Below are positions 3 to 13,960 of a DNA stretch of 64,000 nt, one piece after another. The DNA is from Dehalococcoidales bacterium (GTDB lineage: Bacteria; Chloroflexota; Dehalococcoidia; Dehalococcoidales; RBG-16-60-22): assembly GCA_050018395.1 (NCBI GenBank), contig JBEKAC010000001.1:6192-70191 (forward strand), given 5' to 3'. The notes below the pieces were generated by a model. It saw only the letters and a program-made list of their open reading frames with translations. It had not been told where the DNA came from and did not search any database. How positions within the stretch are numbered: position 1 is the first letter of the stretch; each line of letters starts with the position of its first letter. Both the position numbers and the translations under genes were made by a program.

Positions 3-1157
3 CCCGTCGGCTGGGTCCCCCGGGAAACGTTGCGTGGCTATATCGAGGGCAACGACCCTGTTTCCGGTGCGCTACTAATGGATGAATTAATCTCCGCGCT
101 GACACAGCCGCTGACGGACGCAGAGCTGCACCCAAAAGCATGGCAAAGACCCACCTGGCCGCGGCTGCTCGAGCCGGACACCGAGGAAAATTTACACCGT
201 CTTTTCCTGGAAAACGGCTGGACGGACGGTTTACCGATTCTCCTGCCGACGGAAGAGCGCGTGGCGGAAATGCTCACCGGCACCGGCCACGCTCCCCAGG
301 AATACGTGGGCATGATGTCCGTGACCACTCACGAGGAGCGACTGCAATATACCGTGGAAAAACTGGCGGTCATCGCCGTGATGGCCGGGGCACGACCGGA
401 ACATTTCCCCGTCATCCTGGCCCTGGGCGCTTCCGGGCGGCCTTCCATGCCCAGCTCGACCACCTCCTTCGCCAGCATGATGGTCGTCAACGGCCCCATC
501 CGTAACGAAATCGGCATGAACGGCGGGCTCGGCGCCTTAAGCCCGATCAACTATGCCAATTCCGTCATCGGCCGCGCCTGGACACTGATGAGCATTAACA
601 TGGGGGATGTCCGGCCCGGCGCCACGTTCACCGCCAGCACCGGCACCACCATCAACTACAACAACATGTGCTGCGCGGAAAACGAGGAGCTAAGCGTCTG
701 GGAGCCCTTCCACGTGCGCAAGGGCTTCAAACCGAACGAGAGCGTGGTGAGCCTTTTCCGCGGCTGGACAGTACTCGGCTTCAATACCGGCCCGCTGACG
801 CGGATGGTGGAGGTGATGAAAAACATCGGCGGCCCGTTCGGCGGTTCATTTACTTTCGTTATCGACCCGCTGGTGGCCAAGAGCCTGAAAAACGACGAAG
901 GCTACGCTGACCCGGCCAAGCTAAGCGAGTGGCTGGTGGACAAGCTGAACTTCCGCTTCAAGCGTCCGGAAGCGGTGAACTTCGTGGTGGTGGGCGGGGA
1001 AATGAATCCCATGTGGGTGACGACAGATTTTTCCTACTTCCAGTCGGTGTCAATCGACCCGTGGATTCCTAAGGCGGGCATCAAGAAAGACGCAAGACCA
1101 CTGCGGATGCCGGCGGCAGCAGTCTGCAAGGACGGCTCCTGCGGGATTGACCACTAG
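3..1157 (+). CDS. UGSC-family (seleno)protein paralog, C-terminal part; 5' end lies before the window
   Basis: The frame is open from base 3 (PVGWVPRETLRGYIEGNDP). It has GWTDGLPILLPTEERV, AVMAGARPE and NGPIR motifs, is collinear with the 3347-5143 paralog, and ends in CKDGSC. Confidence 0.85.
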   Translation, partial: PVGWVPRETLRGYIEGNDPVSGALLMDELISALTQPLTDAELHPKAWQRPTWPRLLEPDTEENLHRLFLENGWTDGLPILLPTEERVAEMLTGTGHAPQEYVGMMSVTTHEERLQYTVEKLAVIAVMAGARPEHFPVILALGASGRPSMPSSTTSFASMMVVNGPIRNEIGMNGGLGALSPINYANSVIGRAWTLMSINMGDVRPGATFTASTGTTINYNNMCCAENEELSVWEPFHVRKGFKPNESVVSLFRGWTVLGFNTGPLTRMVEVMKNIGGPFGGSFTFVIDPLVAKSLKNDEGYADPAKLSEWLVDKLNFRFKRPEAVNFVVVGGEMNPMWVTTDFSYFQSVSIDPWIPKAGIKKDARPLRMPAAAVCKDGSCGIDH

Positions 1158-1365: not shown

Positions 1366-2319
1366 ATGAAGGACTTTAAAGGGAAAACAGCTTTTATCAC
1401 CGGCGGGGCCAGCGGCATCGGGCTGGGAATTGCTAAAGCCTGCGTGAAATACGGTATGAAGGTAGTCATCGCCGATGCGCGGCAAAGCGCGCTGGATGCA
1501 GCGATGGCCTATTTCAAAAAAGCCAAAGCTCCCGTCCACCCGATCAACCTGAATGTCACCGACCGCGTCGCTTATGTCAGGGCCGCCGACGAGGCGGAAA
1601 GAGTCTTCGGGAAGATACACCTGCTGGTCAGTAATGCCGGCGTGGGCTCCGGCACCGGCCCCATCGATAAACTGACCTATAAAGACTGGGACTACAGCAT
1701 GGGGGTGAACGTTTGGGGCTGCATCAACAGCATGATGACCATCGTGCCGCGTATTCTTAAGCACGGGGAGGGCGGCCACATCGTCGCCACGTCATCCACC
1801 TGCGGCCTGATGGCCTCGGGCAACTTCACTATCTATTGCTCTACCAAGGCTGCCGTCTGTGCCATTATCGAGTGTCTCGCCACGGAGCTCCAGGACAAGA
1901 ACATCGGGGCTTCGGTGCTAATCCCGGGGCCGACGAATACCGATCTGGGCCGGTCTTCCTTCGAGAATAAGCCGGCCGAATTGAGGAACGAAGGCGAGAC
2001 CTGGCCGCCGCAAATGCCCCCGCCGCGCCCTCAAGGCGCCCCGCCCCGCCGTACCCCGCCGGGAGATATGACCGATGTTATTATGGACCCTATAGAGACC
2101 GGCGAGCGAGTGATACGGGGTATCAGGAACAACGACCTTTATATCCACACCCACCCGGAGTTCAAGGACGGGTACATCGCGCGGCACAACGCCATCATCC
2201 GCGCCATCCCCGACGAGCCGCGGAACGAAAAGCGCTGGGAGGTCGTGAAAAACTTCGGGACGATTATTTATAACGATATTTATGACAAACAGCAGCCGGT
2301 AGGCCCGCCGGACTGGTAA
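1366..2319 (+). CDS. SDR oxidoreductase, LigL/LigO-like Calpha-dehydrogenase family
   Basis: TGGASGIG, NAG and YCSTK motifs; TYKDWDY, NIGASVLIPGP and NDLYIHTHP segments resemble sphingomonad LigL (recalled, not aligned). Confidence 0.85.
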   Translation: MKDFKGKTAFITGGASGIGLGIAKACVKYGMKVVIADARQSALDAAMAYFKKAKAPVHPINLNVTDRVAYVRAADEAERVFGKIHLLVSNAGVGSGTGPIDKLTYKDWDYSMGVNVWGCINSMMTIVPRILKHGEGGHIVATSSTCGLMASGNFTIYCSTKAAVCAIIECLATELQDKNIGASVLIPGPTNTDLGRSSFENKPAELRNEGETWPPQMPPPRPQGAPPRRTPPGDMTDVIMDPIETGERVIRGIRNNDLYIHTHPEFKDGYIARHNAIIRAIPDEPRNEKRWEVVKNFGTIIYNDIYDKQQPVGPPDW

Positions 2320-2335
2320 AATAACGGAGGGAACC

Positions 2336-3325
2336 ATGAAGGATTTTAAAGACAAGATATTATTCATCACCGGGGGGGCCTCCGGAGCGGGGTTGGGGCA
2401 GGCCAAAGTCTTTGCCGAGGCCGGCTGCAAGGTCGTCATCGCAGACATACGGCAGGACCACATCGACGAGGCGATGGCCTATTTTAAAAGCAAAAAGGCG
2501 CCGGTACACGCCATCAAACTGGATATTACGGACCGGAAAGCCTACACCGCCGCCGCGGACGAGGTGGAGGCGGTGTTCGGGGGACCGCCGCAGCTGCTGT
2601 TCAACACGGCGGGCGTTAACGCCTTCGGCCCCGCCGAGGCTTCGACTTTTGAAGACTACGACTGGATTATCGGGGTCGACCTTTTCGGGGTGATTAACGG
2701 GCTGGTGACCTTCGTGCCGCGCATGATTAAAGCCGGCAAGGGCGGACACATCGCCGCTGTGGCCTCGATGGGCGGCCTGATGGGCGGCCCCACCACCGCC
2801 CCCTATTCCGCCGCCAAGGCCGCCGTTATCAATCTCATGGAGAGTTATTACCTGTCCCTCAAGCCCTACGGCATCGGCGTTTCCTGCCTCTGCCCCGGCG
2901 GCATCCGGACGAACATCGGCGAATCTTCCTATACCCGGCCTAAAAAGTTGGAAAACACCGGCTACAACACCAACGAAACGACCATCTCGTTCATGCGGCA
3001 CCACTACTCCTTCGGCATCGACCCGGAGGAACTGGCACGCATTCTCAAGAAGGGCATCGAGGAAGATATCCTTTACGTGCTACCCGTGCCGGAGCCGGAG
3101 AAAATGATGCAGGGCGTGGCGGAGCGGCTGGTCAACTACACGACGCCGGAGGGCATGAAACGGCAAAATGAGCTGGAGACCAAACGCCGCGAGGAGAGGC
3201 GCCTGCACCCCGCCCCCAGCATCGCGGGGGGAGAGGAAGCGGGGTGGGGCAAGGCGCGGCCGGACTTGACCTGGGTAAAGCCATCATCGCGGTGGTCAGG
3301 CAAGGTACCTAAAAAGAAAAAATAG
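2336..3325 (+). CDS. SDR oxidoreductase, LigD-like Calpha-dehydrogenase
   Basis: TGGASGAGLGQAKVF, AADEVEAVFG, NTAGVN.FGP and PYSAAKAA.INLME closely match LigD as recalled; GGAGG RBS. Confidence 0.9.
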   Translation: MKDFKDKILFITGGASGAGLGQAKVFAEAGCKVVIADIRQDHIDEAMAYFKSKKAPVHAIKLDITDRKAYTAAADEVEAVFGGPPQLLFNTAGVNAFGPAEASTFEDYDWIIGVDLFGVINGLVTFVPRMIKAGKGGHIAAVASMGGLMGGPTTAPYSAAKAAVINLMESYYLSLKPYGIGVSCLCPGGIRTNIGESSYTRPKKLENTGYNTNETTISFMRHHYSFGIDPEELARILKKGIEEDILYVLPVPEPEKMMQGVAERLVNYTTPEGMKRQNELETKRREERRLHPAPSIAGGEEAGWGKARPDLTWVKPSSRWSGKVPKKKK

Positions 3326-3346
3326 AACTTAACCCGGAGGCACATT

Positions 3347-4972
3347 ATGTCTATTGAAATACGCTATACCGTCATGAGCCCCGAGGTGCGAGGGGAGAAA
3401 GTGACCGGACCGCCGCCGCATATGCCCGGGCCGCCACCCGCGGCCGGACCCGCGGCGCCGCCGTCTAAAAATACTTTAGCCAAAAGGCTGAACACGCTGG
3501 ACAAAAAGACGGTCTACCTGGTGGATACCGGCTTCGGCGGCAGCTACAACTTCATGCTGCAACTGCAAATATGGTTCAAAGAAAATATGCCGTCCGTGAC
3601 CACGGTACGCAAGCGCAAGCCGGGCAACGTGTTCATGGACGATAACAACGAGCTCTGGGAGGAAGTTAAAGTAAAAGGGGACGCGGTGGTCCTCGGGGTG
3701 GCGGGCTGACCGGGCTGCGTTGGAGCGGTCGCTTCAGGCAGCAGAAAACTGGAAACGAGCTACGGCATCCCGGTAGCGCCCATATCGACACTGGCGTTCC
3801 GTAATGTGGTGGAAGAGACACGACCAACCTCCCCGTTACCCCTGCCGATGATTTTCACGCCTCACCCGGTCATCGGGCTTTCCCCGGAAGCACTGGACAA
3901 ATACATCGTCGGCGATGACCCGGAAACAGGCAAACCGGTCATCCAGGAAATCATCGACGTCCTGACCAGACCGGTAACCATGTCCCAACCGGCAGGAGCC
4001 ATACCATCAACAGCTAAAGCGGCCCCGATTCAAACGATGCTGGGGCCCGACACCGAAGACAATCTGCAGCGCCTGTTCTACGAAAGAGGCTGGACGGACG
4101 GACTGCCGATAATCCTGCCCACCGAGGAGAGGGTGAAAAAGATGCTGGCGGGGACCTGCGCCAAACCGGAGGAGATCGTCAGCGAATCATTCCTGATTGA
4201 TACCAGGGAAATCGTCAAACACACTGTTTCCAGTCTCGCCGTGATTGCCGTCATGGCCGGCGCCAGACCAGAGTATTTCCCGGTCATACTGGGCATCGCG
4301 GCCACGCGGCAGTCATCACTGATGCCTTCGACAACCCCTTTCGAGGCAATGGTCCTGGTGAACGGGCCGATACGCAAAGAAATCGGTATGAACTGCGGCA
4401 TCGGCGCCTTCAGCGCGGTGAACATGGCCAACTCGGTCATCGGCCGGGCGTGGACGCTGATGAGCATCTGCTGGGGCTACGCCAAGCCCCGCGTCACGCT
4501 GTGGAGCTCGCAGGGAAACAACCACACCTACAACAACATGTGCGCTGCCGAGAACGAGGAGCGGAGCGTCTGGGAGCCTTTCCATGTGACTAAAGGTTTC
4601 CGGGCGGAGGAAAGCGTGGTCAGCGTCTTTCGCGGATGGGCGATGGTGAACAGCTACGGGGCCGCTTCCAAACGGTCATTGACCGAAGAATTGAGCTACC
4701 AGCTGGCCATCATGCCCCCGATGCGTTCCGCGGCGACGATTATCATGGACCCGCTGGTGGCCAAAAACCTGAAGGAGAACGAGGGCTTTGCCACCAAGCA
4801 GGACTTCACCCGGCACCTTTCCAAGAATATCAAGATGACGGCGGGGCAATACTGGAAGACCGACCACATCGATATGCTGGTGGCCTCGGAGGCCTACAAG
4901 GGCGTGGAGCCTTACGCCTCCTGGAAAAAGCTGCCGGACGAGTCGCTGATCGCGCCTTATGACAAGCCTTAA
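3347..4972 (+). CDS. UGSC-family selenoprotein (Sec UGA at 3707-3709, U-P-G-C motif) fused to the GWTDGLP domain
   Basis: ORFs 3347-3709 and 3806-4972 are in the same frame. The 32 codons between them are open (PGCVGAVASGSRKLETSYGIPVAPISTLAFRN), and a SECIS hairpin follows the UGA. Confidence 0.85.
3710..3742 (+). promoter_or_regulatory. Bacterial SECIS element
   Basis: Lower stem GCUGC/GCAGC. Upper stem UGGAGC/GCUUCA starts after an 11-nt spacer from the UGA. The apical loop is GGUC, as in the E. coli fdhF SECIS. Confidence 0.8.
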
Positions 4973-5143
4973 AATATCAATATCATCGTCGTTGGTGGGG
5001 AGACGAGCCCCCTGTGGAAAGCCGCCGACTACAGCCATGCCGGGAGCGTGTCCATCGATAAATGGCGGGCGCCTCCCGCCGGCGCGGAATGTAAAGACGG
5101 CGAATGCGGGCTGCCGGACGCCCCGGGCGATTACGATAAATAA
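4973..5143 (+). pseudogene. Detached in-frame C-terminus of the UGSC selenoprotein, after a premature TAA at 4970-4972
   Basis: Reads NINIIVVGGETSPLWKAADYSHAGSVSIDKWR...CKDGECGLPD, homologous to the end of paralog 3-1157 (AVNFVVVGGEMNPMW...SVSIDPW...CKDGSCG). Confidence 0.75.
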
Positions 5144-5222
5144 ATCTTAATCGGCCTGTTTGCCGGCTATCGAAATTTACGGGGTTCAGCGGGTTCGGCT
5201 TAAAAAGGCCGCCCGCTGAATT

Positions 5223-6968
5223 TCATTCCGTGTTATGGTCCGGCTTGTCCTTGGTATCCTGGTCAGGGGTAACTTTAACCACCAGTTCGCCCTTTTCACG
5301 GTAGACGTATTTGCCGCCGCGGAGCCACGACGCGCCGGCGGCGATAAGGCACATCGCGATGGAAAAAGACAAAACAACCATCAGCCCGTGATGGAAGGAC
5401 TGTGAAATCAGTTGCGGGAAAAACGTCCGCGAGGTAATCGCGGCTGCCTGGTCGGGCGGGAGTGCCTGCAGGACTGAGGCCGGGATAACCGTCTGTAAAG
5501 GATTTTTACCCAGGAAAGCGGCGAAAAGATAACCTACGGGCGGGGCGTTAGCCACCTGGTGGGCAATATCGCTGGGGACGGCGTGCTGGACAAGGCCGTT
5601 ATACATCACGGTCGGTATGGACGCGTTCAAGCCTACGGTCATCAAAGTAAAAATGATGGCGGTGGAGAGCGGGCTGCCGACATTGAAAAGCGTGGAACGC
5701 ATACCGGAACCGGCCCCGCGGTGCTGCTCCGGGAGACTATTCATCACCGCGGAAGTATTGGGCGCCATGAACATACCCATCGCCAGGCCGTCCAGCAGGA
5801 TGATCAGCGCGAAGAACGGGTAATGAAAATTGACAGGCAGCAACATCAGCAAGGAAAAGCCGATTGCCGCCACAATCATGGCGGCCGTGGAAAAATAGCG
5901 CGCCCCGTAAGCATCGGAAAGCCGCCCGGAAAGCGGCCCGGCCATTAAAACGCCGAGGCTGGAAGGCAGCATAAAAACACCTGCCCACAGCGGCGTAATT
6001 TCATAATTGTAGCCGTGCAGCGGGAGCCAGATACCCTGGAGCCAGATAGCCAGCATGAGCATCAATCCGCCGCGGGCAATCGCCGCCATTAGAGAAGCCA
6101 TGCTGCCCGCCGCGAAAGCCCGTATGCGGAAAAGGTTGATGCGGAACATGGGGGACGGGACATGCTGCTCGATGATGATGAAAATAATCAGCAGTGCGGC
6201 GCCGCCGCTCAACATGCCGATGACGAAGGGCGTGCCCCAGCTCATATCGGAAGTAGCGCTGGCCTGGATGCCGAAATTGATCCCGACAAGCACCATCGTG
6301 AGGCCGGCGGCGAAGGCGATGTTGCCCAGCCAGTCGATGGACTCTTTTTTACGATAACCAATCTCCTGAAGCTTCAAATAGGCCCAGATGGTGCCGGCAA
6401 TGCCGATGGGTACGTTAAAGAGAAATACCCAGCGCCAGCCGACCTGCGATAAAAACCCGCCGACAAGGACGCCCAGGAAGGAACCCGCGACAGCGGCGAT
6501 CTGGTTCAAACCGAGGGCCATGCCGCGCTGGTTTATCGGGAAGGCATCGGTGAGAATTGCCGCCGAGTTAGAAAACAGGAATGCCCCGCCGACCCCCTGC
6601 ACCATCCTGAACAAAATCAGCTCGACCGCGGCGATGGGGCCGTGGCCCAGCGTGCAAGTTGCCAGGATGGAACCCACCGTAAAAACCGCGAACCCCAGAT
6701 TATACATCTTGGTCCGCCCGTACATATCCCCCATGCGCCCCAGCGTCACGACGAGGACCGCCATGGCCAGCGTGTAGCTCATCATCAGCCAGAGGAGGAA
6801 GGAGAAACTATCACGCGCCAGCGGATCGATGCCGATGCCGCGGAAAATGACGGGCAATGACAGCAGCAGGCTGGCGGCGTTGACCGAAGCCAGCAGCATG
6901 CCCAGCGTGGTATTGGAAAGCACGACCCATTTATACCTTGGGCCGACGGGGCGGGGCGGCGATGACAT
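5223..6968 (-). CDS. MFS transporter, 14-TMS DHA2 (EmrB/QacA-like)
   Basis: GRMGDMYGR motif A, RMVQGVGGA, many hydrophobic helices; start could be 6968-6980. Confidence 0.9.
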   Translation of the reverse strand: MSSPPRPVGPRYKWVVLSNTTLGMLLASVNAASLLLSLPVIFRGIGIDPLARDSFSFLLWLMMSYTLAMAVLVVTLGRMGDMYGRTKMYNLGFAVFTVGSILATCTLGHGPIAAVELILFRMVQGVGGAFLFSNSAAILTDAFPINQRGMALGLNQIAAVAGSFLGVLVGGFLSQVGWRWVFLFNVPIGIAGTIWAYLKLQEIGYRKKESIDWLGNIAFAAGLTMVLVGINFGIQASATSDMSWGTPFVIGMLSGGAALLIIFIIIEQHVPSPMFRINLFRIRAFAAGSMASLMAAIARGGLMLMLAIWLQGIWLPLHGYNYEITPLWAGVFMLPSSLGVLMAGPLSGRLSDAYGARYFSTAAMIVAAIGFSLLMLLPVNFHYPFFALIILLDGLAMGMFMAPNTSAVMNSLPEQHRGAGSGMRSTLFNVGSPLSTAIIFTLMTVGLNASIPTVMYNGLVQHAVPSDIAHQVANAPPVGYLFAAFLGKNPLQTVIPASVLQALPPDQAAAITSRTFFPQLISQSFHHGLMVVLSFSIAMCLIAAGASWLRGGKYVYREKGELVVKVTPDQDTKDKPDHNTE

Positions 6969-7385
6969 CAAAGCAAGCACTCCTTAGGCACATTCATCAA
7001 ACATCCACAGCCGCGCACTCAGGTAATGGAGAAGCAAAAAGGTATTTAGGTGAAGGTCAATAAATGACGATGTTTTTTCCTTAAAGTGTGCGGCGGCAAG
7101 TAACACACCAAAAAATTATATACATTGAAAGTATAGAATTTATCGAGTAACTTTTCAATAAAAGCCGGAACCCACGTAGGACATGCCGAAGAATGCCGAT
7201 ATATGAATTCGTTGCAACGGAACAGTTTAATGCAGGTTTAACCGCGAGCCTCAAGATAACACCAGCCCGCACGGGAAAATTGAACGAGGCTGACTGCCCC
7301 CGAATAGCTAGAAAAAACCTAAGTTTTTTCCGGAAGCAGCCAGCCCCGTATCTTCTGACACTTAAAAACTATCGATCAGACGCGT

Positions 7386-7868
7386 TTATTTTTTACCGGC
7401 TTTTTTATCCGGCGGTTTGGTGAAATTCTGGCCGATAATAACGGAATCGAAAGATTCCGCCATCATGATATGCCCGAACATAATCGGCTTGTCCACCCGT
7501 TTGAAATTGAGCGGGCAATGCGGCAGGTTGCCGGGGACATAGACCCAGGTGGTATTCTTGATAACATGCATTTCCGCGTCTTTGCCTTCACCGAGGGTAA
7601 ACTCCACCTCTGCCCCGAATTCCTTAAAATTCATCGGGTCGCCGCCGATAAAATAGAGGATTTCGGCCACGGCATGCGCATGGGGTGTAGGTATCATCAA
7701 GAAGGGCCGGTAAATGGGGCGCAGCACCTGGACCAGGGGCTCATCCCACCCTTTGACACGTTCATGCTGGCCGATGCCAATGTACACCGGCGCGTCCGCC
7801 GGCGTGCCCGGATGATTGATTCCCCAGGGTTCCGTCAAAAAATACTTATCAAATTTTCCCTTAGCCAT
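7386..7868 (-). CDS. Cupin-like protein (paralog 1)
   Basis: HAH..AEILYFIG.DP, GAEVEF.LG and VPGNLPHCP motifs; AGGAG RBS. Confidence 0.8.
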   Translation of the reverse strand: MAKGKFDKYFLTEPWGINHPGTPADAPVYIGIGQHERVKGWDEPLVQVLRPIYRPFLMIPTPHAHAVAEILYFIGGDPMNFKEFGAEVEFTLGEGKDAEMHVIKNTTWVYVPGNLPHCPLNFKRVDKPIMFGHIMMAESFDSVIIGQNFTKPPDKKAGKK

Positions 7869-7988
7869 TTTCAACTCCTTTTTTATTTATCGTTGATTGC
7901 TAACATTTAAGCATAATATACTTTTTTAATCAATTTTTTTCAATATATTGCGATATTACGCCATTTACCTCCCGAAGTAAATCCGGCT

Positions 7989-9314
7989 TTATTTATAGAC
8001 GCCGTATTCCTCGACGGCTTCTATCATGGCGCGCAGGTTATCCGGGTTGCCCTTATCGATGCCCGCGCCGGAAGTAAGGACGTAACCGCCGCCTTCACCG
8101 CAGACTTCGATAAGGTGCCGGCAATAAGCCTTCACCACTTTGGGTGTGCCGGTGATTAATAACGAAGCGGGCACGTTGCCGGCAATGCAGGCTTTGCCGC
8201 CGAGCAGTCGCTTGGCCTTATCCATATCGGTCTGGTCGAAGTGCCAGTAAACTTTCTTTTTCGGCAGGTCCGTTACCAGGTCGAGGCGGTTGGTATATTT
8301 GCCCTCGGCGAAGAGACACGGCACGCAGCCTTCATCTATCAGGCCCAATACCACCTTCTTCAAGCCCGGCCAGTAAAATTTCTGGAACTGAGCATCGGAC
8401 ATGAATACATCGTCCCCCTTGTGCAGGGCGAAGAAAACTATCGGGTTGCGGGAGGCATTGGCCATCTGCACACCCACATTGATATTCATCGGGGTCAGCA
8501 TCTCGATGGCTTCGAGTATCTTCTCCGGCTGCCGATACATATCCATGACGATGCCCCGGGTGCCCCTCAACGTGTCCGCCAGGATATCAAAAGGCGCATG
8601 GGACTGCCCGCCCCAGAAAGACGGATAGCCCGCCTCCAACCCTTCCCGGGCGAACTCCATAAAGGGTTTGTTCCAGTTTTCTTCCTCGATGCCGTAATCG
8701 ATGATGGCCTGGAAAGCCGCGCGCACGTCCGCCCTGATGGCCGGCATTACGAACCGGTTGGCCATACCCAGCATGTGTGAAAGCGGTGAAAAGCTGGCAA
8801 AAGGCTGGAGCGCCCCCAGCGAACGCGGCAGATAAAAGCGGAAACACCAGTCGCCGGGATCTTTAACCAGCAGATCATATTCATCCGCCTTCATGTATTC
8901 GCCTTCCACGAAGTTGGGCAGGCTGGCGTCATCCGGCAGACCATGGCCCGGCCAGCGCATTGTCAGACTTTGGAGGATCTCCGATCCCCGGGCGGACATG
9001 GCGCCACCACCGGAAAAAGTATCGCTTTGCGGGAAATCCTTGAAGAATTTACGGTAGGCGGCGCAGGCTCTTTCATTATCGTACATGGCTTCTTTAAGCG
9101 TCATCCCGGAATAATGGAGCGGAAAGGAAGGTAGCAATAACGGCACACGGTCAGGTATCTCGCAGTTAATCGCCTTGATCAGCCGTGTTACCCGTTTTTT
9201 ATAGTTTGTTTCCGCGGCTTTGCCGGAAAATTTAACATTCTCCGGCGATAGCCAGCGCGCGAATCTTTCGGCGCGCTTTTCCTCCGGCGTCATCTGGTCC
9301 CAGTTTTTCTTCAC
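7989..9314 (-). CDS. Uroporphyrinogen decarboxylase (URO-D/CIMS-like) family protein
   Basis: PDRVP, PFD.LADTLRG, F.KFYWP, CIAGNVP and GGGYVL motifs; GTG start with AGGAGG RBS. Confidence 0.85.
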   Translation of the reverse strand: MKKNWDQMTPEEKRAERFARWLSPENVKFSGKAAETNYKKRVTRLIKAINCEIPDRVPLLLPSFPLHYSGMTLKEAMYDNERACAAYRKFFKDFPQSDTFSGGGAMSARGSEILQSLTMRWPGHGLPDDASLPNFVEGEYMKADEYDLLVKDPGDWCFRFYLPRSLGALQPFASFSPLSHMLGMANRFVMPAIRADVRAAFQAIIDYGIEEENWNKPFMEFAREGLEAGYPSFWGGQSHAPFDILADTLRGTRGIVMDMYRQPEKILEAIEMLTPMNINVGVQMANASRNPIVFFALHKGDDVFMSDAQFQKFYWPGLKKVVLGLIDEGCVPCLFAEGKYTNRLDLVTDLPKKKVYWHFDQTDMDKAKRLLGGKACIAGNVPASLLITGTPKVVKAYCRHLIEVCGEGGGYVLTSGAGIDKGNPDNLRAMIEAVEEYGVYK

Positions 9315-9407
9315 GTAAGTTCCTCCTGAAAAATAGATTTTATCTTAAAATACGGTCTTTCTAACTAAAAATTCACCTTATTGACGGCCTGTGATATAAT
9401 GGGGCAA

Positions 9408-10235
9408 ATGTTAAAACAAGAAAAAATTCCCAACCGACGGAAATATAACACAATTTCCGCTGGTTCGACAACTGAAACAACTTCCCTGCGGCGGGCGACC
9501 GATATTCTCAACTGCCTCGGTAACGATATCAACACCGTCACGGATATCGCCGCTTACCTGGGATACAGCACCTCCACGGTACACCGGCTGTTGCAGAATA
9601 TGAGCAAACTCGAGTGGGCGACCCAGGATGTCAATAACCATAAATACTACCTGGGCCCGATGGTAACACAACTGGCATCAAACCAGATCGCTGCCCATAA
9701 GTATCTGATTATGCACGCGCTGCGTGAGATGACGCACCTTTCCACCATCACGCAGGAGACAATCAGCCTGGCGATTATGGTACAACTGCGTTATGTACTA
9801 TTACACGAAATTTCCAGCACCTACACTCTAAAAATAACCGAGGAAAGCAAAATATTAAGCCCGGTTTACTCCGGTGCCACATCTAAAGCGCTGCTTGCCC
9901 AGCTCGATGATAAAGAACTGAAGGCAACCTTAAAGCACGTCCGGTTCGACCGGGCCGCCGACAACCCCACGATAGATAAAAACATTCTTTCAGCCCAACT
10001 GCAGGAAATCAGGCGGCAGGGATATTGTGTGACCAGCGGTGAAAGGATTTCCGGGGGCCTGTGCATCTCCGCACCGATTAAAAATTACATTTATCCCGCC
10101 ACGTTAAACATCCTGGGGCCGGAAGAGCGCCTGAAACCAAAGGTCGACCAGTTCATCAAGGAATTGCAGGCCAGCGCCGACCGGATTTCTGAAGATATTG
10201 AGGGAGCATTTAATAACAAAGGAGGTGATGAATGA
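9408..10235 (+). CDS. IclR-family transcriptional regulator (possibly leaderless)
   Basis: N-terminal HTH STVHRLL, GATSKALLA, IRRQGY and ISAPI motifs; TGATATAAT ends 7 nt before ATG 9408. Confidence 0.9.
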   Translation: MLKQEKIPNRRKYNTISAGSTTETTSLRRATDILNCLGNDINTVTDIAAYLGYSTSTVHRLLQNMSKLEWATQDVNNHKYYLGPMVTQLASNQIAAHKYLIMHALREMTHLSTITQETISLAIMVQLRYVLLHEISSTYTLKITEESKILSPVYSGATSKALLAQLDDKELKATLKHVRFDRAADNPTIDKNILSAQLQEIRRQGYCVTSGERISGGLCISAPIKNYIYPATLNILGPEERLKPKVDQFIKELQASADRISEDIEGAFNNKGGDE

Positions 10236-10288
10236 CTTAAGTGTTTGTTATCCGTCATCATACACACAACTTTAAGGAGGAAAAAGTA

Positions 10289-11941
10289 ATGAGGAAATTC
10301 CTATTCATTTTTATTGCCGTGCTATTAATCGGTGTGATGGTACTGAGCGGATGCAGCAAATCCACTCCCACCACCTCACAGTTGCCCCCAACCTCAAAAA
10401 CGCCTTCGGCCACCCCTACGGCTACTACCCCGCCCGCCCCCAGCCCCGTCTCGGGCGGCACGCTGAGAATTATTGGCGGCGCCATTCCTAAAGACATCGG
10501 TTACCCGCCGGAATATGCCCCTAACGATTCTTTCCAGGAGCTGCCGGTCCTGGAACGTCTTTGCCAATGGGGAGATAATAAGGGCAATCTGGTTCCTATC
10601 CTGGCCACATCATGGGACGTCGATCCCACCGCCAAGACCATTACCTGGCATATAAGGCAAGGCGTAAAATTCACGGATGGTACTCTTTTAAATGCTCAGG
10701 CGGTGGATTGGAACTTACAGTTGGAAACGACTACTAGCGCTATAAGCGGTGGCCAGTTCATCCAATCAACCGAAGTCAAAGATGACTATACCCTCGTGAT
10801 GCATCTGAGCCAATTTAACTGGGTGATGGTAGAAGACTACGGTTTACTACAGGCTCTATCCCCGACAGCCTTCTTAACTGCCGGCGGCACGATTCCGTCA
10901 GGCAGTGATAATGCAACGGAAATAGCCTGGGCGCGCTCTCATGTGGTCGGGACCGGGCCCTTCACCGTCAGTGATTGGGTCAGAGATGACCATATCACTT
11001 GGGTGAAGAACCCCAACTACTGGCAGCCGGGCAAGCCGTACCTGGATTCGATAACCATGAAAGCGATTACCGACACCACGGTTGCCTCCGCTTCATTACA
11101 GGCCGGCGAAGCTGATGAGTGGATGGATACCTCTTCGGTGAATGATATCCTGACACTGGAGACAAAGGGCTTTAAAACTGTTCAGGGCCCTGGTTATTTC
11201 AACCTGTTGCTTATGAGTGATGTCGATACAGCCAGCCCGCTTAACAATATAAAAGTACGCGAGGCTATCGAGTATGCCATTGACCGGCCGACTATGGCCC
11301 AGACATTAGGGCAGGGCCTCTTTGAGCCGCTCACCCAGATGACTTGTAGTACCTCTCCCGCCTACATCCCGGGTTATGACCCGCGGCCTTACAACGTTGC
11401 CACAGCCAAACAACTCCTGTCTGACGCTGGTTATCCCAATGGCCTCACGATGAAGATTCTGGGAGCATCCGGTGGAAATACCAATGATGTGATGGCCCTG
11501 TTTAAGTACGACCTGGGCCTGGTGGGCATTACCGTTGAGCCTGACATCGCCGATCTGGGCCGCTACTTTGGCGCGATATTCGGTGGCGCTAAAGGTGGCT
11601 GGGATGGTCTTTGTTTTACGGCTTCCGGTATCAACCCGGACGCTTCGGACCTGTACGTTCACTTCGGCCCGAACCCGATGACGTTCGCCACTCCCAACAT
11701 CTTGAAAACCGATACATTCACACAACTTTGTAACGCGGGGTTGGATCCCAGCATTACGAATGCTGCTCAGGCCATGCCCAAGATGCAGGCAGCCTTTAAG
11801 CAGTGTGAAGAAGACTGCTTGTTCATTCCGATCTTCAGGAGCTATGAAGCCACCGTTGTATGGCCTTATGTACATACAGACTATCCCGCGATCCATGGCA
11901 TCATCTGGCATCCTGCTGAAGACTGGATGGAAAAACACTAA
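10289..11941 (+). CDS. ABC transporter substrate-binding lipoprotein, family 5 (DppA/OppA-like)
   Basis: Lipobox LSGC, Thr/Pro linker, RQGVKFTDG, VGTGPF, VREAIEYAIDR. Confidence 0.92.
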   Translation: MRKFLFIFIAVLLIGVMVLSGCSKSTPTTSQLPPTSKTPSATPTATTPPAPSPVSGGTLRIIGGAIPKDIGYPPEYAPNDSFQELPVLERLCQWGDNKGNLVPILATSWDVDPTAKTITWHIRQGVKFTDGTLLNAQAVDWNLQLETTTSAISGGQFIQSTEVKDDYTLVMHLSQFNWVMVEDYGLLQALSPTAFLTAGGTIPSGSDNATEIAWARSHVVGTGPFTVSDWVRDDHITWVKNPNYWQPGKPYLDSITMKAITDTTVASASLQAGEADEWMDTSSVNDILTLETKGFKTVQGPGYFNLLLMSDVDTASPLNNIKVREAIEYAIDRPTMAQTLGQGLFEPLTQMTCSTSPAYIPGYDPRPYNVATAKQLLSDAGYPNGLTMKILGASGGNTNDVMALFKYDLGLVGITVEPDIADLGRYFGAIFGGAKGGWDGLCFTASGINPDASDLYVHFGPNPMTFATPNILKTDTFTQLCNAGLDPSITNAAQAMPKMQAAFKQCEEDCLFIPIFRSYEATVVWPYVHTDYPAIHGIIWHPAEDWMEKH

Positions 11942-11964
11942 TACCTGAATACCGGGTTACCTTG

Positions 11965-12012
11965 GGCCGACTGGTCCGCTGGCATGGCAAGCCGCCGGAG
12001 GGCCAGTCGGCC
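11965..12012 (+). terminator. Intercistronic stem-loop after SBP gene
   Basis: GGCCGACTGGTCC...GGGCCAGTCGGCC; no U-tract. Confidence 0.5.
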
Positions 12013-12095
12013 GGACAAATTAGTAACTGTTCCGCCACGGACATTAAAACCGGATAAGGAATATACTTTATCAGCCTGACACCGAGGTGTAAAAA

Positions 12096-13055
12096 TTGAC
12101 AACATACATTATACGGAGAATATTACTGGCCATCATAGTGCTCATCATCGTTACACTGATTGTCTTCTTCTTGATGCGGCTATTACCCGGAGACCCTATA
12201 TTGATTTATGTCGGGCAGCAATCTTCGGTTCAGGCTATGCCGCCGCAGCAGGTTGAAGCCCTCCGGCATGAGTACGGCCTGGACCAAAATATTGCGGTTC
12301 AGTATTTTAAGTGGATTGGCGGTATTTTGCGGGGTAATTTCGGCACCTCTATTTATTATCATGAGGAAGTGAGTCATCTTTTGGCGGAACGCCTCCCGAA
12401 AACCGTGTATATCGGGTTTCTTTCTCTTGTTTTCGGAGCAATAGCCGGTATTGCTATTGGTATCTGGGCCGGCGTAAAAAGAGGTAAATGGCCGGATAAG
12501 GTAATTACGCCGCTGACATATGTGGGCATTACCATACCGGTATTCTGGTTAGGAATTTTGATGATATATGTATTCGCGCTGAAATTACACTGGCTGCCGA
12601 CCTCAGGATATACTTCACCGTTCAAAGATTTCTGGCTCAGTACCCGCCAGCTTATTATGCCGGTTTTTTGTTCCTCACTGTTTGCCATCGCAGCTAATGC
12701 ACGGCAAATGCGTTCCAGCATGCTGGAGACCATTGGTCAGGATTTCATCAGAACTGCCTGGTCCAAAGGGTTAAGCGAACGTGTTGTGGTACTGAAACAC
12801 GCATTAAAAAACAGCCTGATACCTGTGATTACACTGGTGGGGATGGGGGTCGGGGGAATACTCGGCGGGTCGGTCCTTATCGAGACCGTATTCGCTATCC
12901 CGGGCGTCGGCCGTTTGTTGGTTAGCAGTATTTTCGGCCAGGACTATGTCGTCGTTCAAGCGATTACTCTGGTTATTTCCGTCTCAATTTTAGTCATGAA
13001 TCTTCTGGTAGATTTATCATATGGTTGGCTCGATCCCAGAATTAGGTATGGATAG
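12096..13055 (+). CDS. ABC permease (DppB/OppB-like)
   Basis: PGDP, RSSMLE..QDFIRTAWSKG, HALKN, DPRIRY. Confidence 0.93.
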   Translation: MTTYIIRRILLAIIVLIIVTLIVFFLMRLLPGDPILIYVGQQSSVQAMPPQQVEALRHEYGLDQNIAVQYFKWIGGILRGNFGTSIYYHEEVSHLLAERLPKTVYIGFLSLVFGAIAGIAIGIWAGVKRGKWPDKVITPLTYVGITIPVFWLGILMIYVFALKLHWLPTSGYTSPFKDFWLSTRQLIMPVFCSSLFAIAANARQMRSSMLETIGQDFIRTAWSKGLSERVVVLKHALKNSLIPVITLVGMGVGGILGGSVLIETVFAIPGVGRLLVSSIFGQDYVVVQAITLVISVSILVMNLLVDLSYGWLDPRIRYG

Positions 13056-13063
13056 GTAAAGAT

Positions 13064-13960
13064 ATGGCAGAAGAAAAAGCCCAAACAATGGAATTTTCAG
13101 AAAACAAGAGCCGGGGCAGCGAATGGAGACGGTTCCGGCGGGTATTTTTCGCCCGCGGCGCGGTCATGGTCGGCCTGATAATATTATTAATAACATTCAT
13201 TGTAGCTATCTTCGCTCCTTTTCTAGCGCCTTACAATCCCTATACGCCCGGTGTAGCGAAGTCTCTGGCGCAACCCAGCGCCCAGCATTGGCTCGGAGCG
13301 GATTTACTGGGCAGGGATACGCTAAGCCGATTGATTTATGGTTCCAGAACGGCACTGGAGGTGGGTTTTATTGCGGTTGCCGTAGGTTCCATTATCGGTA
13401 TTACTTTGGGCATCGTTGCCGGGTATACGCGGGGAATTGTCAGCACCATCATTATGCGAGCGATGGATGCGATGATGTGTTTCCCGATGTTAATCCTTTC
13501 CCTGGTTATCGCGGCCCTGCTGGGTAACGGCATCGTTAACGTCATCATCGCCCTGAGTATTTCCTCGATACCGGGTTATGCCCGTGTGGTTTACGGGCTG
13601 ACGCTAAGTATCAAGGAAAATGATTATATCCTGGCACAAAAAGCCCTGGGTTCAGGGAGCTGGCGTACCATGCTTGGCCATATCCTGCCGAACGCCTTTC
13701 CCCCCCTGATCGTCCTTGTGACCATGCAGCTGGGCGGCCTTATCCTGGCGGAAGCCGGGCTAAGTTTCCTGGGCATCGGTATTAAACCACCCGGGGCGGC
13801 CTGGGGCGCCATGGTCAACGCCGGTTACCCATACCTGACAACAAATGTCTGGCTCTCCTTTGCCCCTGGCGTGGCCATCATGCTGGTTGTCTTTGCATTT
13901 AACATGGTCGGCGATGGCTTAAGGGACGCCCTTGATCCCAAGCTGAGGGGATTGTTATAG
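13064..13960 (+). CDS. ABC permease (DppC/OppC-like)
   Basis: HWLGAD.LGRD.LSR, EAGLSFLG, GDGLRDALDP. Confidence 0.93.
   Translation: MAEEKAQTMEFSENKSRGSEWRRFRRVFFARGAVMVGLIILLITFIVAIFAPFLAPYNPYTPGVAKSLAQPSAQHWLGADLLGRDTLSRLIYGSRTALEVGFIAVAVGSIIGITLGIVAGYTRGIVSTIIMRAMDAMMCFPMLILSLVIAALLGNGIVNVIIALSISSIPGYARVVYGLTLSIKENDYILAQKALGSGSWRTMLGHILPNAFPPLIVLVTMQLGGLILAEAGLSFLGIGIKPPGAAWGAMVNAGYPYLTTNVWLSFAPGVAIMLVVFAFNMVGDGLRDALDPKLRGLL

Follow-up and report, generated by a model that had tools for sequence, protein, structure and literature searches.

Organization of the locus

The window analyzed here, i.e., the whole stretch of 64,000 nt from the genome of a Dehalococcoidales bacterium (genome G000; an assembly of 2.5 Mb, 93% complete), carries a same-strand run that consists of a U-D-G-C paralogue, two short-chain dehydrogenase (SDR) genes and, as its last member, the gene that starts at position 3347 (gene 3347), followed by a hairpin (Table 1). 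In gene 3347, the ATG opens 120 codons that lead to a TGA within VLGVAG-U-PGC, and a further 32 open codons lead in frame to a GTG at 3806, where a second ORF had been predicted. A sequence-only reading of the window had proposed that selenocysteine (Sec) read-through joins these two ORFs, and the sequence agrees with its account of the motif and of the open codons. The joining of the ORF at 3806 to the upstream ORF also stands, but the reading had overlooked that the ORF's own end is a premature TAA. The full frame ends at a TAA at 5143, 56 codons past the premature one; orthologues with 69-77% identity are 561-619 aa long, and their termini coincide with position 5143 or fall 20-25 residues short of it.

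The hairpin at 5181-5224 is a likely terminator between convergent genes; a consensus terminator scan did not pick it up, a promoter scan gave results at chance level and no RNA dataset was among the runs listed as containing the stretch. Further downstream (5223-13960) are genes for an MFS transporter, a 162-aa protein without a Pfam match, a URO-D-like protein, an IclR regulator and a family-5 ABC uptake system.

Table 1. Features of the gene 3347 locus (window coordinates)
Feature	Position	Strand	Basis or remark
3' part of intact U-D-G-C paralogous fusion gene	3..1157	+	Its UGA is outside the window, 157 nt to the left (G000:C1:6035)
Second short-chain dehydrogenase	1366..2319	+	Best solved match 4YA6 (LigO-type C-alpha-dehydrogenase), E 3.2e-64
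LigD-like short-chain dehydrogenase	2336..3325	+	21 nt upstream of gene 3347; E 7.5e-94 to PDB 4Y98
Shine-Dalgarno GGAGG	3336..3340	+	6 nt 5' of ATG 3347; from the sequence
Entire UGSC/Unknown_1 fusion frame	3347..5143	+	598 codons; UGA is codon 121, premature TAA is codon 542
UGSC domain, residues 41-185	3467..3901	+	PF24696; hhalign 95.1%; L014 model; predicted flavodoxin-like alpha/beta fold
UGA in frame, presumed Sec residue U121 (U-P-G-C)	3707..3709	+	Frame and homologue column
Cys124 of UxxC motif	3716..3718	+	Cys in 40/40 distinct UPGC-clade sequences
SECIS-like hairpin	3720..3737	+	GU tip 3728-3729 closed by pair 3727/3730; folding and comparative data
Large Unknown_1 (GWTDGLP) domain, ~350 aa	4028..5071	+	Fig. 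S1A match; pLDDT 94.9; VIA best Z 5.1
Premature in-frame TAA, codon 542	4970..4972	+	Sense codon in 26/26 orthologues; same letters in 4/4 runs
Conserved C-terminal 56 codons past TAA	4973..5143	+	Three predicted strands, VVGG and DKWR motifs, CxDGxC tail 5090-5107
Strong hairpin past the natural stop	5181..5224	+	z -5.3; 0/200 shuffles fold as well

Conservation of the UGA column and presence of the Sec machinery

Seventy-five related genes, from 64 loci of a genome collection and from several phyla, cover the UGA column; the nearest relatives among these loci are labelled Dehalococcoidales. The column holds TGA in 68 genes, TGC in 6 and CTG in 1, and never TAA or TAG. An alignment to homologues with Cys at this position, which the sequence-only reading had called for, is provided by the six TGC genes, which are from Proteobacteria and encode the motif H-C-S-T-C. 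That reading had also named three findings that would count against it, namely a genome that lacks Sec machinery, homologues with neither Cys nor Sec at this column, and two parts made as separate proteins; each of them turned out the other way. The genome carries selA, selB and selD (their products score above the cut-offs) as well as a tRNA-SeC(tca) on contig C16, which is the sole tRNA with a TCA anticodon in this genome, and the selD gene carries a TGA of its own. The column is dominated by TGA and TGC, as stated above, and in the Cys homologues both parts lie in one fused chain of about 550-570 aa. Moreover, each of the seven UGSC paralogues in the genome has one TGA at the equivalent site (7/7), and CxxC was found in 12 of 35 distant representatives that cover the site.

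A SECIS-like hairpin supported by covariation

The hairpin with a GGUC apical loop (3727-3730) behind an 11-nt spacer, which had been read from the letters, was reproduced by folding: the U-A pair 3721/3736 follows the 11-nt spacer, and RNAfold adds a U-G pair, 3720/3737, for a spacer of 10-11 nt. The claim that this is the geometry of the E. coli fdhF SECIS was close to correct. In both elements the stem starts after 11 nt and GU lies at the tip within G-GU-C, but G-GU-C is found at +18 to +21 in gene 3347 as compared to +19 to +22 in fdhF, i.e., one base nearer the UGA, the bulged U of fdhF is absent, and in relatives of gene 3347 the closing pair switches between G-C and A-U. The loop falls within the range of 16-37 nt after the UGA that PMC10778597 gives for bacterial SECIS apical loops.

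As a single sequence, the hairpin is not unusually stable relative to shuffles (z -0.3 to -2.0 in four stretches and +0.5 in a fifth). An Rfam scan of 3300-5300 returned five chance-level matches with no SECIS family among them, and RNAalifold found no consensus stem over 60 nt. Among the 40 distinct U-P-G-C sequences, a clade that was chosen by the U-P-G-C motif itself, G+19 and U+20 are invariant, and the pair +18/+21 is G-C in 22, A-U in 14 and C-U in 4, the latter four pairing in a shifted register. Since +18 and +21 each fall on the third position of a codon (one for Ala, one for Val), these letters are not forced by the protein. The mutual information of this pair ranks first of 8,128 conserved four-fold site pairs (32/32 complementary; 37 sequences), and its A-U state requires 5 changes on the 37-row tree, at least 3 of them forced by well-supported branches. 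Covariation over the 8-pair stem was 0.30, as compared to 0.17 in shuffles (0/500) and at most 0.19 with slid partners; the outer pairs are more variable, with +12/+27 unpaired in 18/38. A GU-tipped stem of at least 6 bp, a rule modelled on gene 3347 under which 5 of 7 other examined Sec genes score 0 with their different hairpins, was found in 2 of 922 TGA-ending ORFs, i.e., the UPGC fusion gene at 3347 and its closest paralogue. The hairpin at 3720-3737 therefore very likely acts as a SECIS element, with support that is comparative and does not come from single-sequence stability. Because the open frame and a Pfam domain span the UGA, the UGA column alternates with Cys, the Sec machinery is present and the hairpin covaries, the UGA at 3707-3709 is almost certainly decoded as Sec.

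Membership in the UGSC family and in a published fusion

The read-through protein matches Pfam PF24696 (UGSC) with 47.7 bits (cut-off 25) across the UGA; the ORF before the TGA alone reaches 19.1 bits and the downstream part has no match. All 36 aligned members match PF24696 at E<=0.01, and two database homologues have been named UGSC family by NCBI. NCBIfam NF041046, a strict equivalog, gave 41.6 bits and its curated cut-off of 125 was not reached. By these profile matches, gene 3347 is assigned to the Pfam UGSC family and to a published fusion, outside the strict NF041046 equivalog. Many full-length homologues, P0122, P0124, P0170 and P0175 among them, lack both Cys and Sec in the motif (SxxT, MxxL or TxxS instead), which suggests that these may be non-redox members of the family.

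UGSC-containing selenoproteins have been described in PMC1976440, and a "UGSC/Unknown_1" fusion was published by Zhang and Gladyshev in 2008 (PMC2398784, Fig. S1A); a 2026 review still counts the UGSC family among the uncharacterised ones and places it with Trx-like proteins (PMC13188914). The published fusion and gene 3347 share Sec as the first residue of UxxC and the Unknown_1 domain as the C-terminal part of the same chain, and the Fig. S1A block matches, by eye, residues ~298-351 (AVMAG...VNGP) of gene 3347. The fusion to a large GWTDGLP domain that the sequence-only reading had described is thus matched by this published block and by the fused Cys homologues. The gene differs from the published fusion by a U-P-G-C instead of a U-G-S-C motif and by an Ala in place of the conserved Unknown_1 Cys, and it also differs in its link to LigD-like SDRs and in its premature TAA. 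The recoding is of an ordinary kind, the UGSC family (catalogued 2007-2008) and the fusion (2008) are already known, and gene 3347 is a further member. As stated, the recoding finding mainly corrects annotation, with close homologues present in databases only as pieces. No report of a homology between UGSC and GrdB or of an SDR module was found in the literature covered, outside of which lie most subscription journals.

Homology of the Sec domain to GrdB and PrdB

An AlphaFold model of L014, an intact orthologue with 77% identity to gene 3347, had a pLDDT of 90.7 and a pTM of 0.91. The best VIA match of its Sec domain was flavodoxin/Rossmann-like (Z 10.8, rmsd 3.6, 136 aligned residues), as were all of the top 50 matches, a list that may omit other families. 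When the Sec-domain profile was compared by hhalign with 21 C-terminal regions of the GrdB/PrdB family (28 were extracted and 7 wrongly oriented ones left out), the probability was 95.1% (E 3e-8) with UxxC in register, as compared to 1.7% or less for four alpha/beta controls. This profile alignment shows homology between the Sec domain of the UGSC fusion and the part of GrdB/PrdB (PF07355) that carries Sec. A PDB sequence search with the family profile gave no match at E<=0.001, and single-sequence NCBIfam matches to PrdB and GrdB (1/36 each) were discarded as no better than one to DsbE.

In contrast to the GrdB/PrdB systems, genome G000 gave no match in an HMM search for the GRDB family (PF07355) and no GrdE/PrdA-type partner was found in it, and the Sec domain of gene 3347 is fused to an unrelated 350-aa domain; GrdA was not found either, in a search that had no positive control. 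The UGSC fusion would thus be at most GrdB-like in action, and outside the GrdB/PrdB family. In GrdB-type proteins, Sec acts as a nucleophile on polarised C-N and C-F bonds, according to PMC10838667. Placing UGSC with GrdB/PrdB instead of with thioredoxin points to carbon-heteroatom bond cleavage.

The large Unknown_1 domain

Modelled alone, the large domain of the orthologue had a pLDDT of 94.9, and a Foldseek search with the full and domain models yielded no match at E<=0.001. A match to class I fumarate hydratase was distrusted (E about 2e-3, TM 0.23, rmsd 17). VIA returned capsid-like and small alpha/beta folds with a best Z of 5.1, which is within background and no proof of a new fold. 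Homology of this domain to GrdE/PrdA (0.04%) and an internal repeat were both rejected. The conserved polar residues of the domain are D257, N345, N368, R373, E408 and H419 (L014 numbering), and the domain is also found in stand-alone proteins of ~350 aa.

LigD-like dehydrogenases as neighbours

An SDR neighbour was found in 31 of the 64 loci. The LigD-like SDR adjoins the gene in 26 of the 40 UPGC loci and is not adjacent in the other 14. These 14 take in the branch formed by the second U-P-G-C paralogue, and two of them have short upstream flanks; an adjacent LigD-like SDR was not seen in Cys-type or Acidobacteriota loci. Among 41 related genomes, which are kin and not independent, the SDR is present in 22. 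A close homologue of the fusion (E<=1e-100) occurs in 21 genomes, every one of which has the SDR; the remaining one is a 56% complete genome with partial fusion matches. It is absent from the 2 genomes that have distant UGSC genes only and from 17 of 17 without a homologue. The sequencing runs in which half or more of this DNA is present come with peat or wetland labels (10 rows, of which 3 are possibly the source sample).

In the Lig pathway, a dehydrogenase makes the ketone that allows glutathione-dependent ether cleavage. The SDR at 2336-3325 is, by eye, ~54% identical to LigD over 276 residues, as compared to 40% between LigD and LigO. Both upstream SDRs match C-alpha-dehydrogenases of the Sphingobium SYK-6 beta-aryl ether pathway best, the PDB entries concerned (4Y98 and 4YA6) being those of a study of LigD, LigO and LigL (PMC4858972). 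The locus differs from the SYK-6 pathway in that neither a glutathione S-transferase (GST) nor a glutathione synthetase was found in the 93%-complete genome by searches whose controls were positive, and in that a selenoprotein occupies the neighbouring place.

In another reading, Sec is real but the protein would be an oxidoreductase of a general thiol/disulfide or peroxide type, which is what has been suggested in the literature for UGSC, and the SDR a mere neighbour. This is unlikely. Many homologues lack an SDR or C/UxxC and other paralogues have other neighbours, which argues against a cleavage chemistry; on the other hand, the Sec domain best matches flavodoxin/Rossmann-like folds and the GrdB/PrdB profile, and both the adjacency and the co-occurrence of the SDR are tight in the close clade.

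A premature TAA in a conserved gene

Codon 542, the site of the premature TAA, is a sense codon in all 26 orthologues with at least 69% identity and encodes Asp or Glu in 25 of them. Contigs of all four sequencing runs that were compared cover 4970-4972 with no other letter (the runs fall under four studies; X2 may be the source sample and X4-X6 are not marked so), and the three database entries of the protein cluster all end at the premature stop. Since the four runs agree and all three entries end there, the TAA is taken to be a real allele, and an assembly error was rejected as its source. One database variant, P0001, shows three residue differences from the window protein and the identical premature stop.

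The TAA cuts off 56-57 conserved residues, including near-invariant ones, and three strands that the model predicts confidently and that are inferred to belong to the core. All 92 near-full-length alignments (in which some loci occur twice) extend to column 575 or beyond. In the truncated copy, 6 of 263 conserved columns are broken (orthologue range 0-11), and of 18 such columns after the TAA none is; with no decay seen elsewhere in the gene, the lesion looks recent. No premature stop was found in the two SDRs flagged for TAA. Because the TAA cuts conserved residues and recurs across the four runs, this copy of the gene has probably been inactivated; intact alleles may possibly exist elsewhere.

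It is unlikely, by comparison, that the allele still functions, either as a working 541-residue protein or through low-level read-through of the TAA. The absence of other decay before and after the TAA and the persistence of the allele, identical in contigs of four runs from four studies, would fit such a function, and recoding of UAA to Sec has been reported in some species (PMC10778597). However, near-invariant residues and predicted strands would be missing, no near-full-length relative ends so early, TAA is an ordinary stop in this genome, so that general read-through was rejected, the only tRNA-Sec has the anticodon TCA, and no hairpin was found after the TAA (z +0.7). The inactivated copy thus remains the preferred reading of the TAA.

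Alternative readings of the TGA

A TGA that is a true stop, leaving two separate proteins or a split pseudogene, is very improbable. In its favor, databases contain the downstream piece only, the large domain also occurs alone in proteins of ~350 aa and the gene carries a second stop. The best 120 database matches each cover at most 77% of the read-through protein; this is expected if gene callers stop at the UGA, and it agrees with the sequence-only reading, which had stated that such callers would miss the fusion. Against a true stop, 68 of the 75 genes, which come from several phyla, retain the TGA, which aligns with Cys and is never replaced by TAA or TAG, the Pfam domain spans the TGA, silent sites beyond it covary and, by reading, the sequence upstream of GTG 3806 holds no Shine-Dalgarno-like run.

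A different genetic code, in which TGA would mean Trp, Gly or Cys throughout the genome and for which in-frame TGA in several genes could speak, can be dismissed as next to impossible, since 922 long ORFs end in TGA, the sole TCA-anticodon tRNA is tRNA-Sec and the clear cases of read-through are selenoprotein sites, e.g., SelD and a formate-dehydrogenase-like (FdhA) CARL-U-H.

Paralogues and other candidate selenoproteins

The U-D-G-C paralogue of which the window holds the 3' part is intact (G000:C1:5651-7348), and its UGA is followed by a strong hairpin. The two paralogue-plus-SDR pairs are divergent rather than tandem in several relatives. The C-terminal tail CxDGxCG is common to many U-P-G-C and U-D-G-C paralogues and absent in others; it could be a mobile redox arm, in a region where model confidence is low. 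A second U-P-G-C paralogue, L149 (G000:C13:45770-47479), is intact, is 59% identical to gene 3347 and is followed by genes for an FAD_binding_2 flavoprotein and a 4Fe-4S dicluster ferredoxin, which are a possible electron supply. A U-S-T-C paralogue, L153 (G000:C38:17697-19397), lies directly 3' of genes resembling the E1 alpha and beta components of 2-oxoacid dehydrogenases.

Further TGA codons that lie in frame and are flanked on either side by sequence that looks coding were found on the minus strand at G000:C17:29916, C24:8637, C42:11627 and C1:77705; the last resembles a formate dehydrogenase and the other three are candidate selenoproteins. At Acidobacteriota loci L066-L071 and L076, these selenoproteins come as tandem pairs whose N-terminus has a signal-like leader of the RR type, and an ammonium transporter is encoded nearby.

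Proposed mechanism and implications

In the proposed mechanism, the UGA of gene 3347 would be decoded as Sec through the downstream SECIS hairpin, the GU tip of which is almost certain to be bound by SelB, giving a UGSC/Unknown_1 fusion selenoprotein. The neighbouring NAD-dependent dehydrogenase would oxidise a secondary alcohol to a ketone, Sec121 would attack the carbon beside the ketone and displace a leaving group, Cys124 would release the product and an outside reductant would reset the Se-S bond, while the large domain would bind the substrate. By analogy with GrdB and with the Lig pathway, this sequence of ketone formation, displacement and release, with substrate binding by the large domain, is offered tentatively, as one that may well be wrong. 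In the allele of the window, loss of the three predicted strands would probably disable the protein. Taken as a whole, an explanation that combines Sec insertion via the SECIS element, a likely GrdB-type cleavage and a copy likely inactivated by the TAA is slightly more likely right than wrong.

Taking the analogy further, the substrate could be a lignin-type beta-aryl ether, although this is doubtful, and it is a correspondingly speculative suggestion that, in Dehalococcoidia of peat, the UGSC/Unknown_1 selenoproteins serve as beta-aryl etherases that need no glutathione. In them, a GrdB-type Sec domain, fused to a substrate domain for which no solved fold was matched, would cleave the ketone made by the LigD-like SDR. 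The LigD-like neighbour names a purchasable substrate, which makes the function of the family directly testable; such functional tests need an intact orthologue because the copy in gene 3347 is truncated. If the etherase reading were true, it would give a function to a long-unexplained selenoprotein family, and anaerobes would gain a route to break the main linkage of lignin.
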